Positions 30,138 to 34,587 of a DNA stretch of 64,000 bases are shown piece after piece; within the stretch, counting starts at the first letter, position 1; each line of letters starts with the position of its first letter. Under the pieces are notes generated by a model. The model was not told the DNA's origin. It did no database searches and saw nothing but the letters and a program-made list of their open reading frames with translations. Made by a program: the position numbers and the translations under genes. The DNA comes from an uncultured Pseudomonadota bacterium. Lineage in GTDB: Bacteria; Vulcanimicrobiota; Vulcanimicrobiia; Eremiobacterales; Eremiobacteraceae. The stretch is taken from contig CAWADW010000005.1 in NCBI GenBank assembly GCA_963781145.1, forward strand, positions 504,423 through 568,422, read 5' to 3'.

Positions 30138-30370
30138 GATATCGTCGGCAGTCTCATAGACGGTCGTGTTGCGCCCGATTTCCCCGCAGCCGCCAAGCGG
30201 GATGACTCGGAGAAACGGTCGTTTTTGGATCGACGAGCGGCTCTAGACTTGCCCCCTGTTGGGAGGCTGGGAAAAATTCGTGCAGCATGCACGATGCATT
30301 TAGGCGGCCCCCGCATTTGGCCTGCTGCTTACGTGTCCATGGGCGACTTGACACTCGCCCGCTACGGGTC

Positions 30371-30408: not shown

Positions 30409-30966
30409 TTAGAGCGGCAGCGTACTCCATGTGAGCGCTCGAGGCGTAATGCTCTCTGGGCATAACAGTTCGATCGTCCGCGTTTCAAATGCGTGCAAGA
30501 GCACGACCGTGCTCGCACCACTTTGCGCGCCGCGGTCCGACGCGATGCTCGCCGAAAGCAAGAACGAAACCTCGACGCCCCTTTGGTTGCTGACCTTTGC
30601 GCGGATGATGGGACTTCCCACGAAATCCTTTGTGACGACGACTGGCCCGATCGTGACGCCCACGCCCAACGGGTAGGCACGCGCATCGACAAACTCCGGA
30701 GTTTCCGTTCGCGCCCGAACGAGAAAGTCGTGGAGCAACGCTTCGCGGCGCTGCAGCACCGCGTAGCGAATGCACCGAGAGATAGCCGCGCTTGAGTTGC
30801 GCCGACCCACCTTTCGCCGCTTTCTCTTGTAGCCAGGCAGGGACGGAGTGGGAGCGGCCTGGGTGTTCTCTGCGAATCCCGGCGCGCCGGAAATACCGTC
30901 GCAGACTTTTTGAGGTGATGGAAACGCAAGGGCGGCGAGAAGCGGAAGAATCACCAAAGGCATCAA
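30409..30966 (-). CDS. hypothetical secreted protein (weak call)
   Basis: Signal-like N-terminus MMPLVILPLLAALAFP. Overlapping alternative ORFs exist in this GC-rich region. Confidence 0.3.
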   Translation of the reverse strand: MMPLVILPLLAALAFPSPQKVCDGISGAPGFAENTQAAPTPSLPGYKRKRRKVGRRNSSAAISRCIRYAVLQRREALLHDFLVRARTETPEFVDARAYPLGVGVTIGPVVVTKDFVGSPIIRAKVSNQRGVEVSFLLSASIASDRGAQSGASTVVLLHAFETRTIELLCPESITPRALTWSTLPL

Positions 30967-31005
30967 GGCCTCTATCCCGCATCAGCTTGTGGAGTCAAGG
31001 GCGGC

Positions 31006-31034
31006 TTGACAGACGGTCAGAGCCTCAGTATAAT
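31006..31034 (+). promoter_or_regulatory. sigma70-type consensus promoter TTGACA-N17-TATAAT upstream of the GntR gene
   Basis: Exact consensus hexamers with 17-bp spacing. Confidence 0.55.
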
Positions 31035-31054
31035 TGTCTTAAAACATTAAGACA
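31035..31054 (+). promoter_or_regulatory. palindromic operator candidate TGTCTTAA-AACA-TTAAGACA spanning the predicted transcription start site
   Basis: 8-bp perfect inverted arms immediately downstream of the -10 element. Likely a GntR autoregulation site. Confidence 0.45.
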
Positions 31055-31138
31055 ATAGGACAACAACCAACGGCCACACGATTTCACCTCAACGACTCAA
31101 GCGGCATACCGGTCTACCTGCAGTTAAGGGAGCAAATC

Positions 31139-31441
31139 TTGCACGCCATCTCAAGCGGCCTACTGCATCCGGGCGACCAGCTGCCGACGGTTCGCGAAGT
31201 AGCCATTGACCTGTCCATTAATCCCAACACCGTGAATCGGGCGTACGCGGAGCTCGAGCGCGACGGCACCCTGACCAGTCGTCGAGGAAAGGGCACCTTT
31301 ATCGCAGAGCCCACTGCCAGCAGTGCGCCAAAGCGAGACCGGCTCGTGGACATCGGGCGGCGCGCGCTGGCCGAGTGCCGGATGTTCGGGTTCACGACGG
31401 ACGATTTGCTCAGCGCAATAAAACGCTTAAAGGAGGTCTGA
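31139..31441 (+). CDS. GntR family transcriptional regulator (short, HTH only)
   Basis: LPTVREVAIDLSINPNTVNRAYAELERDG HTH. The in-frame upstream sequence (from 31043) encodes a conserved helix 1 (SGIPVYLQLREQI), so the true start is probably upstream of the TTG at 31139. Confidence 0.8.
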   Translation: MHAISSGLLHPGDQLPTVREVAIDLSINPNTVNRAYAELERDGTLTSRRGKGTFIAEPTASSAPKRDRLVDIGRRALAECRMFGFTTDDLLSAIKRLKEV

Positions 31442-31585
31442 CAAACCCATGCCGACTGTCACCGATCGCAAACCCCACCGAGTGGACCCTCTGGCGCCGT
31501 CATCGCCGGCGGTCAGTCCGTTCACTTCGGCAATGCGATCTCGTGGCTGCTCGCGTTCCTGCTCTTCATCGCCGGCGTCTGGCTC

Positions 31586-32459
31586 TTGGCGTCAACGGGA
31601 TCGATTATTTATGCCATTGTTGGGATCATTTTGGCCTTGCTTTCGCTCGCGTCGATTCAAGTCGCCAAAGCGTGGGAGAAGGCAATCGTGCTGCGGCTCG
31701 GTCGATTCCATCGCCTCGCCGGCCCAGGCATCTTCTTCATCATTCCGGCGTTCGACGCCGTTGCGTCGTGGATCGATCAACGCGTGCAGACGAGCACCTT
31801 CGTCGCCGAGCAAACGCTGACCAAAGATACCGTTCCGGTGGACGTCGACGCCGTGCTTTTCTGGGTCGTTTGGGACGCCAAGAAAGCCGCCTTGGAAGTG
31901 GCATCGTATCGCGATGCAATCGGTTGGGCCTCCCAAACAGCGCTGCGCGACATTATCGGCACCACGTTTCTCGCCGACTTGCTCTCCAATCGCCAGGCAA
32001 TTGACAGCAACCTTCAACAAGCAATCGATGGCCGCACGACTCCATGGGGCATAACGGTACAGTCGGTTGAGATTCGCGACATCAAGATTCCTGAGAACTT
32101 GCAAGACGCGATGTCGCGCCAGGCCCAGGCGGAGCGCGAGCGCCAGGCTCGCGTCGATTTTGGGCGATGCCGAGCGGCAAATCGCGGAATCCTTCCTCGA
32201 GGCCGCGAAGTCATACGCCGGGAATCCAGTCGCGCTTCATCTGCGCGCCATGAACATGCTCTACGAAGGACTCAAGGAAAGAGGAGCGATGATCATCGTG
32301 CCGAGTACGGCGGTCGAAACAATGGGGCTAGGCACGATCACTGGATTAGCTTCGCTGGGGACGGCGCAAGGCATCGCTTCACCCCTGTCCGGCGCGAGCG
32401 CCCCAGGCGGGGCTGACGCCGGCGCAGCTAACACCTCATCCACTACTGGAGGGTCGTAA
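31586..32459 (+). pseudogene. SPFH/band-7 (stomatin-like) protein, disrupted by a +1 frameshift near 32156
   Basis: The N-terminal frame gives ...KAIVLRLGRFHRLAGPGIFFIIP...QAQAERERQARV. The C-terminus continues in frame 32067..32459 (ILGDAERQIAESFLEAAKSYAGNPVALHLRAMNMLYEGLKE...). There is one extra G after ...CGCGTC. Confidence 0.75.
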
Positions 32460-33173
32460 ATGTTTCTTGTTGCAGTCGTTGTTGCGCCGCTGTGAGCGCT
32501 GCAGGGTCTTCCGGAGGCCGGGTACTCCGCCCGATGGCACGTACAATTATTCGATCACGCAAGCCGGCGCCCGATCGGAACGAGCACAGTCACGATCAAG
32601 AGAAGTCCTGACAATATCTCGCTCCACGAAACCGAGACGCTCGGACAGTTGAGCTACGTCGTAGACGAAACACTCGATACAAATACGCTGAATCCAAAAA
32701 CATACGTCGCAACCTATACCAAGGGGACCGGATCGCAAACCGCGCGCGTTGCGTTTGACCGACACGGGTGCGACCGTCACTTTTGATGGCGTTGCAGGCA
32801 ACGAATTTTTCGCTTTCCCGGCAGGCAACAAGAATGCGTACGTCCTCGAGTCGTCAATCATGACGGGTTTTCTCATGCTCCCAGCCCAGCTCCACGCGAG
32901 CAGGGCGAACCAATTCCTCCAAGTCATGCCGAGTGAGGTTGCCCGCCTCACCGGCCGCGTGAGCGGGCAACCGCTGGCCCGCGACCGGCTGGCCTGCCCT
33001 CAAATGACGTGTCCCTCTCGATCGGCGGGCGAGTCAGTTTCGACGAATGGTACGATCCCAATACGTACGTCTTGCACGCGGTTTCCGTGCCCATCGAAGA
33101 CGTGCTCATCCAAGCTAACAAAATAGCCCATCGGGGTCAAGGGTATGGCCGCTACATTGGTTCTGCAGGTTGA
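32460..33173 (+). pseudogene. degraded secreted-protein gene (signal peptide + beta-rich domain) with at least 4 frameshifts; lower GC
   Basis: GGAGGG-N6-ATG start encoding MFLVAVVVAPL followed by a stop. Protein-like segments then alternate between three frames (PIGTSTVTIKRSPDNISLHETETLGQLSYVVDE..., TDTGATVTFDGVAGNEFFAFPAGNKNAYVLESS..., VSLSIGGRVSFDEWYDPNTYVLHAVSVPIEDVLIQANKIAHRGQGYGRYIGSAG*). Confidence 0.35.
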
Positions 33174-33204
33174 CGCGTTAGCACTCTCGATGCTATAGTG
33201 CTAA
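33170..33204 (+). promoter_or_regulatory. heat-shock promoter: TTGACG-N18-TATAGT overlapped by a CIRCE inverted repeat TTAGCACTC-N9-TAGTGCTAA
   Basis: Matches the CIRCE consensus TTAGCACTC-N9-GAGTGCTAA at 17/18 positions. The -10 element lies inside the element, 175 bp upstream of htrA. Confidence 0.7.
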
Positions 33205-33378
33205 GGTAGCATGGATTTCGGTTCCCGACCGCATCTCGGGACATAGGGGCGGCCAGGCCAGCCCCGGCAACAATTCCGTCTATCGATCAGGTAGAAATTT
33301 TAGGCGGTCGTTCTCGCCATGGCCCTCGTGCGGGACTTCCGCGCCTTTAAGCAAGTTCATAGGAGTAGAGTAAACAAG

Positions 33379-34587
33379 ATGAGTTCGCAAACCCGCACGT
33401 CGCTCGGCTTCCTTCTTATAGGAGTGCTCGGCGTGCTCATCGGTGCAGTCGTGATCACCCTTCTCGCCCCCAAATTCTGGCCCGCGCAACAGGCGTCGCT
33501 CAGCTCGAATGTCGCGTCGGCAGAGCCCCTTGCGCCCATCGGTACGGACAATCTCGAACAGCGCATCATTAAAGTCGTCAAGCAGAGCGAGCCCTCGGTC
33601 GTGTTGATCAAGACCACCGTGCACGGGGTCCAGCAAATTTACAACCCCTTCCAAAATGATCCGTTCTTCCGCCAGTTTTTTGGCGACCAAGGCCCCCAAA
33701 GCCAATCATTTACCGTCCAAGCGTCTGGGTCTGGGTTCGTGATCAAGCGCGAAGGCGACACAGCGTACGTGGCGACCAATGCCCACGTCGTTTATCATGC
33801 GGACAAAGTCCAAGTCTTGCTCTCAACCGGGCGCCAAGTCGACGCCGAGGTCGTGGGATCGGACGATGACGCGGACCTCGCGATTTTGAAGATTCGCGGT
33901 TCGAACTTACCATCCGCGCTGCCGCTTGGTAATTCCAGCGCTTTGCAGCAGGGCCAATTCGTGCTCGCGATTGGTGAACCGGAATCATTTCAGAACTCGG
34001 TGAGTTTGGGAATCGTTTCTGCGATCCACCGCAGCGGCATCGACGCCGGCGGTGGTGCGGGCTTCCCGACGTTCCACTACAGCGACATGATCCAAATTAC
34101 GACGCCGATTAACCCGGGCAACTCCGGTGGACCGCTCATCACAACCGGCGGCCAAGTGGTCGGCATTAATGCAGTCGTCGCCGAAGAGGCGCAGGCGATC
34201 GGGTTCTCGATTCCGATCAACGCTGCCGCGCCGGTGCTGGCGGAAATCGAAACGACCGGACATGGCATTCACGTGCAGCACCCGTTCATCGGCATTCAGA
34301 TGCGCGCACTCAATACGCAGATCGCCAACTACCTAGGTTACAATGGAGCGCAGGGCGTCGTCGTCACGGACGTCGTCGCGCAGAGCCCGGCCGACAAAGC
34401 CGGCCTGCAAGCCAGCGACATCATTTTGGAACTCAATCACCAAAAGGTCGCAAGCGCGGATCAAATCCGCAATGCCATTGCCAAGATGAAGGTGGGAGAC
34501 AAAATCACCTTGCTGGTCTGGAGAAATGGCAGCCTGCAGCCCGTCAACGTCACCCTGGGTGACCGGCCCGAGACAGTCCAAGGCTAA
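33379..34587 (+). CDS. htrA: HtrA/DegP family serine protease (S1C, trypsin-like domain + PDZ)
   Basis: N-terminal transmembrane/signal segment, TNAHVV (His), D, GNSGGPL (Ser) and a C-terminal PDZ domain. Start at MSSQTRTSLGF, preceded by AGGAG. Confidence 0.85.
   Translation: MSSQTRTSLGFLLIGVLGVLIGAVVITLLAPKFWPAQQASLSSNVASAEPLAPIGTDNLEQRIIKVVKQSEPSVVLIKTTVHGVQQIYNPFQNDPFFRQFFGDQGPQSQSFTVQASGSGFVIKREGDTAYVATNAHVVYHADKVQVLLSTGRQVDAEVVGSDDDADLAILKIRGSNLPSALPLGNSSALQQGQFVLAIGEPESFQNSVSLGIVSAIHRSGIDAGGGAGFPTFHYSDMIQITTPINPGNSGGPLITTGGQVVGINAVVAEEAQAIGFSIPINAAAPVLAEIETTGHGIHVQHPFIGIQMRALNTQIANYLGYNGAQGVVVTDVVAQSPADKAGLQASDIILELNHQKVASADQIRNAIAKMKVGDKITLLVWRNGSLQPVNVTLGDRPETVQG

Follow-up and report, generated by a model that had tools for sequence, protein, structure and literature searches.

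The regulator locus and its features

The window, by which we mean the whole 64-kb stretch of DNA that was analyzed, carries on its forward strand the gene of a small GntR-family regulator, and selected coding sequence of this gene, as judged from a frame scan and substitution patterns, lies upstream of every canonical start codon in its frame. The locus comes from an uncultured soil lineage that homologues assign to Eremiobacterota (alias Vulcanimicrobiota), and from its sequence the gene appears to be the first of an autoregulated operon. DNA was collected for 32 distinct orthologous loci, 17 with a canonical start and 15 forming the clade to which the window belongs, in which such a start is missing (the start-less clade). 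Their comparison indicates that the full-length protein of 123 amino acids (aa) most likely starts at an ACG codon, and that a TTG codon further downstream is probably a second, internal initiation site preceded by a Shine-Dalgarno (SD)-like motif. The features concerned are the following, in coordinates of the window.

31006..31011, forward strand: -35 hexamer TTGACA, present as TTGACA or TTGACG in all 28 relatives that cover the region and share the upstream context
31029..31034, forward strand: -10 hexamer TATAAT, a consensus match, after a spacer of 17 nucleotides (nt)
31033..31056, no strand assigned: operator palindrome ATTGTCTTAA-AACA-TTAAGACAAT, with 10-nt arms that are 100% complementary
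31056..31063, forward strand: third half-site TAGGACAA, a direct repeat of TAAGACAA, containing AGGA at 31057-60
31070..31072, forward strand: ACG, the proposed initiation codon, 9 nt downstream of AGGA (31057-60) and found in 15/15 distinct sequences of the start-less clade
31070..31441, forward strand: open reading frame of the full-length YtrA-type GntR regulator, 123 aa plus a TGA stop
31079..31081, forward strand: CGA, now a sense codon, at the position of the ancestral TTG or GTG start in the orthologue alignment
31112..31153, forward strand: codons of helix alpha-1, VYLQLREQILHAIS (residues 15-28 counted from the ACG), placed by an AlphaFold2 model and the Pfam GntR alignment
31126..31132, forward strand: internal SD-like AAGGGAG within the codons Leu-Arg-Glu, recognized by codon conservation and duplex energy with the anti-SD
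31139..31141, forward strand: internal in-frame TTG (Leu24 of the long form), putative start of a 100-aa product, TTG in 32/32 loci

Below, L-numbers denote DNA loci of relatives and P-numbers denote protein clusters. Phe14, codon 22 and Leu33 (TTG33) are alignment columns, TTG33 being the same TTG at 31139 that is Leu24 of the long form.

The extended translation matched the Pfam GntR domain (PF00392) with E = 2.1e-16 and 59.8 bits (cut-off 27) over profile positions 2-64 of 64, and the domain begins 8 residues upstream of TTG 31139. An AlphaFold2 model built from 58 orthologues (predicted local distance difference test score 87.6) showed the H-H-H-E-E topology of a winged helix-turn-helix (wHTH) domain, followed after the wing by two helices (residues 88-105 and 110-122), which together with the total length of 123 aa corresponds to the short C-terminal region of the YtrA subfamily and not to an effector domain of the FadR, HutC or MocR type. 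The closest solved structures are short YtrA-type chains of 121-134 residues (4ham, 3by6, 3neu, 4r1h, and 6sbs), and in the alignment with 4ham, residue 4 of the chain stands opposite the residue directly before Phe14. The family assignment made in the first-pass annotation, GntR, was thus confirmed by the Pfam match, the structure matches and the model, and could be narrowed to the short YtrA type.

The regulator resembles the short YtrA regulators (4ham, which is Lmo2241; 3by6; 3neu; the Rv1152 and PmtR models) in having an N-terminal wHTH domain with only two C-terminal helices, and in being encoded by the first gene of an operon with a palindromic operator at its own promoter. It differs from them in its partners, a Band_7/SPFH gene (PF01145) and a gene for a 220-aa protein without a Pfam match in place of the ABC transporter of the ytrABCDEF archetype, in its scores, which do not reach the NCBIfam equivalog cut-offs (Rv1152-family model, 70.5 bits against 170; PmtR, 67.9 against 200), and in its predicted non-canonical start and conserved internal start. 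An ABC-transporter operon is typical of the YtrA subfamily and not strictly defining. The gene order is kept in relatives, with rnj and a 180-aa gene divergently upstream and the Band_7/SPFH gene followed by the gene for the protein of about 220 aa downstream. Two loci labelled "uncultured proteobacterium" (L001) and "Candidatus Acidiferrales bacterium" (L002) show a rnj-regulator-SPFH arrangement that is 79-91% identical to Eremiobacterota/Vulcanimicrobiota loci, and these labels are probably taxonomic or binning errors. An exact look-up of the 100-aa product of the window gave no match, and relatives were used for comparison.

Promoter and operator

The promoter and the operator can be read directly from the DNA. 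The TTGACA-N17-TATAAT promoter at 31006-31034, already recognized in the first-pass annotation, agrees with the sigma-70 consensus at 12 of 12 positions and is kept in relatives; it is the sole such site in the 64 kb even when one mismatch is allowed (expected 0.05). The -10 hexamer of relatives is TATAAT, TATACT, TATATT, TAGAAT, TACACT or TACTTT, at spacers of 16-19 nt. Judging from the position of the -10 hexamer, transcription would start at about 31041-31043.

The palindrome previously placed at +1 is real, overlaps the -10 hexamer and the predicted +1 and is conserved in relatives, but it is longer than described, covering 31033-31056, and the third half-site had been missed. Its 22-nt core TTGTCTTAAAACATTAAGACAA (31034-31055) is unique in the window, with no further copy at up to three mismatches (expected 0.05) that would hint at a regulon. 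The operator was found in 29 of the 32 distinct loci; 28 of these also show the -35/-10 pair, and for 25 of the 28 the first base of the operator is the last T of the -10 hexamer. The direct repeat TAAGACAA-TAGGACAA spans 31048-31063, and each of the 29 loci with the operator has TAGGACA, TGAGACA, AGGGACA or GGAGACA after the palindrome, even where the start codon lies 15-31 nt further on. Members of the start-less clade have 31-36 nt of leader from the -10 hexamer to the start codon, and the other loci 36-57 nt. As the third half-site is kept in all 29 loci regardless of the distance to the start, AGGA appears to be part of a conserved DNA element, which in the clade of the window was seemingly co-opted as an SD, since a shift of the start by 9 nt upstream brought the two to a suitable distance.

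An operator placed in this way is usually read as a means of autorepression through occlusion of RNA polymerase. The predicted operator lies over the inferred transcription start, so that bound regulator would keep RNA polymerase off its own promoter and probably represses it. Three loci (L087, L088, and L090) have neither the promoter nor the operator; they show another upstream context with a strong SD (GAGGGA) ahead of a TTG start, and there the regulator seems to be embedded in another transcription unit.

Absence of a canonical start codon

The reading frame of the regulator is open from 31043, after TAA at 31040-42, and encodes NIKTIGQQPTATRFHLNDSSGIPVYLQLREQI before TTG 31139. The first-pass annotation had found no ATG, GTG or TTG in this stretch, and from 31035 to 31138 we observed none, whichever of the three frames was read. 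One C that L081 and L082 have in the leader is missing from the window at 31062 (GGACAACAACC against GGACACACAACC); for this reason the frame seems open back to 31043, while those two loci have TAG four codons before the ACG.

Orthologous proteins are mostly 121-130 aa long and begin Met-Phe-His-Leu-Asn. They carry the upstream residues, contrary to the possibility considered earlier that orthologues start at the TTG equivalent and lack them. Among the 17 canonical-start relatives, TTG (14) or GTG (2) stands directly before Phe14, and L006 instead has TTG three codons upstream. In the start-less clade, this position is taken by CGA, TTT, TTA, CTA, CTC, ATA or ATT, for which reason initiation at the ancestral position was rejected as a candidate. 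Judged by this alignment, the ancestral start is a TTG or GTG three codons downstream of the ACG that was lost across the clade of the window. The clade comprises 15 distinct sequences in about 11 lineages with 74-97% protein identity and is monophyletic in a neighbor-joining tree. None of its members has an in-frame canonical start upstream of the internal TTG, the one exception being a derived ATG at codon 22 of L170.

An assembly error or a recent inactivating mutation in the genome of the window would also leave a gene without a start, and the window is indeed indel-prone, with at least five frame-breaking single-base indels in about 4.5 kb and one more in the leader of the regulator. However, L081 and L082, which come from separate sequencing runs and are 99% identical to the window, carry ACG GCC ACA CGA TTT CAC as the window does, so the start-less state is not a sequencing error, and the regulator coding sequence shows no indel against either of them. 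Codons from the ACG to the CGA are thus identical in three independent assemblies, none of which has the ATG at 31070 that had been envisaged as a possible outcome of read inspection. With the start-less state shared by about 11 lineages under purifying selection, as pN/pS (the ratio of nonsynonymous to synonymous changes) indicates, we regard this explanation as refuted and its residual probability as very slight.

Evidence for translation upstream of TTG 31139

The first-pass annotation had argued that helix 1 of the wHTH lies upstream of TTG 31139 and must be translated. The argument holds, because the AlphaFold2 model places the TTG codon inside helix alpha-1, as the tenth of its 14 residues, and because the domain begins upstream of it. 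Substitution patterns point in the same direction. Over 45 pairs of sequences from the start-less clade, pN/pS was 0.09 in codons 14-32, the 19 codons upstream of the TTG, with 0.18 in codons 14-21, 0.20 in the remaining wHTH (codons 33-94) and 0.56 in the N-terminal tail (codons 11-13). The synonymous excess in codons 14-32 reached binomial p = 0.0006-0.006 in single deep pairs. Within the clade, substitutions in these codons are mostly at third positions and no indels occur; synonymous turnover is seen at Phe14, His15, and Asn17, and in a first comparison of six sequences all five changes between Ser20 and Ile32 were synonymous. Given a pN/pS of 0.09 over codons 14-32, it is a strong inference that the codons upstream of the TTG are translated. 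The tryptic peptide FHLNDSSGIPVYLQLR (or ...NESSGIPVYLQLR) would mark such translation.

ACG as the probable start of the full-length regulator

The best-supported candidate, and most likely the start of the 123-aa protein, is the ACG at 31070. Its column is ACG in all 15 distinct sequences of the start-less clade, whereas three other conserved Thr columns are divided about 50:50 between ACC and ACG, and the four columns flanking it vary in amino acid, with 2-7 residues each. The distance from the ACG to Phe14 is fixed at 12 nt, despite great variation in the 9 nt in between and a 5-nt variation in the leader that precedes the ACG. An in-frame TAA in L173 leaves open GCC ACG GCC CCG CTC, and in L081 the TAG lies four codons before the ACG, so that ACG is the only near-cognate codon open in these two loci. 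All 15 clade members have an SD-like motif 6-10 nt upstream of the ACG, mostly AGGA-N7-10, with AAGGGA-N8 in L167, L168, and L172 and the consensus AAGGAG-N6 in L170. The clade thus keeps, at the nucleotide level and in frame, a near-cognate codon with an SD-like motif at a distance within 5-10 nt. The ACG 9 nt after AGGA had been pointed out before as a start candidate, and in this respect the earlier proposal stands; its treatment as a near miss, which would serve if it were ATG, does not, since invariance in 15/15 sequences of a whole clade speaks for a maintained feature, not a lesion.

In Escherichia coli, ACG initiates at about 0.1-1% of the level of AUG and yields an N-terminal Met (bioRxiv 10.1101/063800). 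The non-canonical annotated starts listed in the survey of model genomes by Hecht et al. are CTG, ATT, ATC, and ATA, and ACG is not among them (10.1101/063800). Our literature search gave no example of a natural bacterial ACG start in the library covered, which does not prove that none exists.

Other near-cognate codons were considered. ATT 31046 and ATA 31055 were rejected as starts, because the 1-nt indel in L081 and L082 puts TAG in frame downstream of them and because stops occur likewise in other clade members. More serious is AUA at codon 22 (31106-08), from which a 112-aa protein with intact alpha-1 would be made. This codon is ATA in 13/15 members of the start-less clade (L170 has ATG and L168 ATT) against 2/17 in the sister clade, the gene of L170 is called from its ATG there, and AUA is the better start in E. 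coli, at 1-2% of AUG against 0.1-1% for ACG (10.1101/063800). On the other hand, no SD-like motif stands upstream of codon 22, codons 14-21 look translated by their pN/pS and synonymous turnover, and the invariant ACG with its fixed in-frame spacing and its SD would be left unexplained. The ATA count itself discriminates little, because all three Ile codons are near-cognate. We consider initiation at codon 22, or at another near-cognate codon, unlikely as the origin of the long form.

Two observations were made around codon 22. Within 31097-31108, Ser20 (AGC) and Gly21 (GGC) are codon-invariant in the start-less clade and are followed mostly by ATA, a rare Ile codon; this AGC GGC ATA stretch could be a secondary near-cognate start, a hairpin strand pairing with 31140-31146, or a slow codon. 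In L170 (positions 1477-1530 of that locus), the ATG at codon 22, with its 112-aa gene call, occurs together with a uniquely weakened internal SD (AGG changed to CGA, giving CGA GAG), a combination that hints at a possible functional link, with each initiation site compensating for the other.

C-to-U editing of ACG to AUG, as in plant organelles, or a special initiator tRNA whose anticodon is CGU would allow efficient initiation at a conserved ACG; nothing direct speaks for either. We know of no bacterial precedent for either mechanism, and the 64-kb window holds no tRNA gene and hence no unusual tRNA. Both appear extremely improbable to us, and decoding of the ACG by the ordinary initiator tRNA is preferred.

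A probable second, internal initiation site

In a codon-by-codon comparison of 22 sequences, all but three of the 81 columns varied; the invariant ones are Val24, Glu30 (GAG), and Leu33 (TTG). TTG33 is present in 32/32 loci, whereas TTG makes up about 13% at seven other conserved Leu columns, which use four to six codons each. Column Arg29 reads AGG or CGG, or AAG for Lys, in 31/32 loci, and AGG occurs once among 88 codons at other conserved Arg columns. As a result, GGGAG or AGGAG lies 6 nt before the TTG in 31/32 orthologues, and the duplex of this motif with a generic anti-SD has an energy of -6.6 to -8.1 kcal/mol in all 22 sequences scored, compared with -1.5 to -4.2 kcal/mol for most upstream starts and a background mean of -2.8 kcal/mol. 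A conserved in-frame start with suppressed synonymous variation has served as an argument for functional internal translation initiation sites in Ribo-RET work (bioRxiv 10.1101/520783), and the TTG at 31139 with its SD shows both properties. Initiation probably occurs here as well, within the gene, and would give a product of 100 aa; in the model, this protein would retain the recognition helix, the wing and both C-terminal helices but lose nine of the 14 residues of alpha-1. The start that the open reading frame track had assigned to this TTG is therefore more than an artefact, being conserved with its SD at the nucleotide level. The internal SD-TTG appears specific to the orthologue group of the window, since distant YtrA homologues (Firmicutes, Chloroflexota, Planctomycetota, and Eremiobacterota paralogues) lack it.

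Of the 120 closest protein clusters, about 16 have public gene calls that start the regulator at the internal TTG and give it 100-105 aa, which the presence of the internal SD-TTG explains. The truncated clusters include P0001, P0015, P0028, P0047, P0049, P0064, P0066, P0081, P0084, P0099, and P0104; P0104 probably comes from the contig of L004, where a canonical upstream TTG exists.

RNAalifold proposed a hairpin in which GCGGCA (codons 20-22) pairs with UGCaCGC (codons 33-35) and which encloses a CCU/AGG stem covering the SD; it is the minimum free energy fold in 25/32 sequences. No covariation was found in it, as no pair changes on both sides and 500/500 shuffles were as good, and the leader folds no better than shuffled sequences (z = +0.68). 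For want of covariation and thermodynamic distinction, the idea of a conserved RNA structure that hides the internal SD and TTG was rejected and is kept as a lead only. A search of Rfam over 30800-31600 gave no match at E <= 1.

These data bear on the opposite possibility that TTG 31139 is the sole start, that only the 100-aa protein is made, and that the upstream "codons" form an untranslated leader conserved at the RNA level or a recent relic. The TTG is the only canonical start codon, has by far the stronger SD, is invariant in every locus, is the choice of gene callers and takes part in the hairpin just described. However, the low pN/pS upstream of it, with third-position changes and no indels, is the signature of a coding sequence, not of RNA structure; the hairpin shows no covariation. 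The product would miss most of helix alpha-1 of the wHTH, and the invariant ACG and the fixed 12-nt spacing would have no explanation. We therefore find it improbable that the TTG acts alone, and we retain the reading with two initiation sites.

Proposed model and comparison with known systems

Considering the above results, we propose a model in which every step, from the use of the ACG and the TTG as starts to self-repression, is a comparative inference. The operator, a palindrome of 22-24 bp to which a directly repeated third half-site is added, extends from the final base of the -10 hexamer over the predicted transcription start, and the regulator would occlude RNA polymerase at its own consensus sigma-70 promoter. 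The mRNA would carry two in-frame initiation sites. At the first, the ACG at 31070 would be decoded by initiator tRNA with the help of AGGA 9 nt upstream, giving the 123-aa repressor with an intact alpha-1; in the ancestor and in sister lineages, a weak TTG or GTG three codons downstream would have served, which decayed in the clade of the window while the ACG took over. Such a start would make functional repressor very scarce. At the second site, inside alpha-1, the stronger AAGGGAG-N6-TTG (31126-31141) would yield the 100-aa product and has been kept across the orthologue group. Speculatively, this product might act as a poison subunit or anti-repressor through its C-terminal dimerization helices, or it might be inert, its translation keeping ribosomes on a weakly translated leader cistron so that the downstream genes are still expressed. 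Taken as a whole, the combination of an autoregulated operon, an ACG start for the 123-aa form and an internal TTG start for the 100-aa form seems to us reasonably likely.

Several points weigh against it. ACG is among the poorest near-cognate codons in E. coli. An in-frame ACG is found at the corresponding position in the canonical-start lineage L007/L089/L091 too; the ACG thus predates the loss of the TTG, and its conservation may partly reflect inheritance. AGGA is conserved as a DNA half-site even where it is unable to act as an SD, and its presence is thus not independent evidence for the ACG start. Codons 14-21 taken alone are borderline (p = 0.025-0.29 per pair), and the long form could conceivably start a few codons downstream of the ACG. 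The ATA bias at codon 22 could point to a second near-cognate start, and the nucleotide conservation around TTG33 could serve another purpose, such as the candidate hairpin.

A more far-reaching version of the model would be a two-product cistron like that of Tn5 transposase and its inhibitor, in which a scarce repressor (from the ACG, or from the weak TTG in sister lineages) is tuned or antagonized by an abundant partner without alpha-1 that forms heterodimers with it through the C-terminal helices, here inside a one-component transcription factor; in its broadest form, the whole clade would tolerate ACG through relaxed discrimination by initiation factor 3 (IF3), and other "start-less" genes would be expected. 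We regard this extension as possible but doubtful. The Tn5 inhibitor lacks the DNA-binding N-terminus. The putative short product resembles it in losing an N-terminal functional element, and the gene resembles those of Tn5 transposase/inhibitor, IF2 alpha/beta, ClpB, and CheA-L/S in that a conserved in-frame start, preceded by an SD of its own, lies within the reading frame. Unlike these proteoforms, the short product is a prediction from sequence, the cut falls inside a helix of the DNA-binding fold and not between domains, and of the two sites the internal one seems to be by far the stronger.

With the AUU start of infC (IF3) and other bacterial near-cognate starts (AUA, AUC, AUU, and CUG), the predicted ACG start has in common that it is conserved, belongs to a regulatory protein and has a well-spaced SD, and that weak initiation would keep or regulate a low protein level. 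The difference is that ACG has a second-position mismatch, in the 0.1-1% class (10.1101/063800), and that no feedback link to IF3 is known. There is also a likeness to the ACG starts of adeno-associated virus VP2, Sendai virus C' and plant organelles, where the codon is edited to AUG, in that a weak ACG would set the stoichiometry of an extended and a shorter form. The eukaryotic, viral and organellar cases rely on scanning ribosomes or RNA editing, whereas here initiation would be directed by an SD on the bacterial 30S subunit.

Non-canonical and internal starts are thus known kinds of initiation, and what would be new is a selected bacterial ACG as primary start combined with a stronger internal start within the DNA-binding fold of a repressor. 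A whole clade would maintain the ACG under selection as its only route to a functional DNA-binding domain, providing a natural test case for the lowest start-codon strength that bacteria can use and for the stringency of IF3 outside model organisms. To our knowledge, gene finders ignore ACG as a start. The locus exposes a systematic annotation error, helix 1 being missing from the truncated clusters listed above. The internal SD-TTG suggests that a small repressor can be made as two proteoforms from one mRNA, which would be a compact regulatory design. In practical terms, a consensus promoter, a defined putative operator of 22 bp and a tiny repressor become available from a phylum almost without genetic parts.

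Neighboring genes and other observations

Two genes follow the regulator in the operon.

31449..32459, forward strand: SPFH/Band_7 gene, co-transcribed downstream, with the SD AAGGAGG in the last codons of the regulator
32460..33126 (approximate), forward strand: third gene of the operon, about 220 aa, with a hydrophobic N-terminus and no Pfam match

In the window, the SPFH gene is split over three frames by three single-base insertions (31465 A, 31478 C, and 32156 G) relative to two independent assemblies that are 99% identical; it is intact in L083, L166, L168, and L170, where it encodes 330-335 aa with PF01145. The third gene, whose product is probably exported, is broken into at least four pieces in different frames in the window and is intact in L083 (3887-4555).

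The rnj gene on the minus strand (30215-30292 region) has one extra base near 30220 compared with L083 and L001 (ACGACCG against ACACCG), and tblastn showed its frame switching from -3 to -1 at 30220-30224. In relatives, the RNase J protein of 573-577 aa reads ...LEPLVDPKTPFLRVIPLGG in one continuous frame. Because the extra base shifts the frame, the open reading frame finder starts rnj at GTG 30137, and the real start is probably ATG 30288 (MLHEFF..., MLHEFFPASQQG...). The first-pass annotation had described rnj as one substitution away from a proper start; the cause is a single-base frameshift instead. These breaks suggest either an indel-prone assembly, perhaps from long reads, or real gene decay with pseudogenes. 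Since they recur so close by, start-less or split reading frames in the window need external confirmation, and the regulator survives this comparison.

Further downstream, a promoter-like TTGACG-N18-TATAGT with an extended -10 TG (10/12) was found at 33170-33199, about 120 nt upstream of an intact 422-aa reading frame for an HtrA/DegP-like serine protease (33319-34587).

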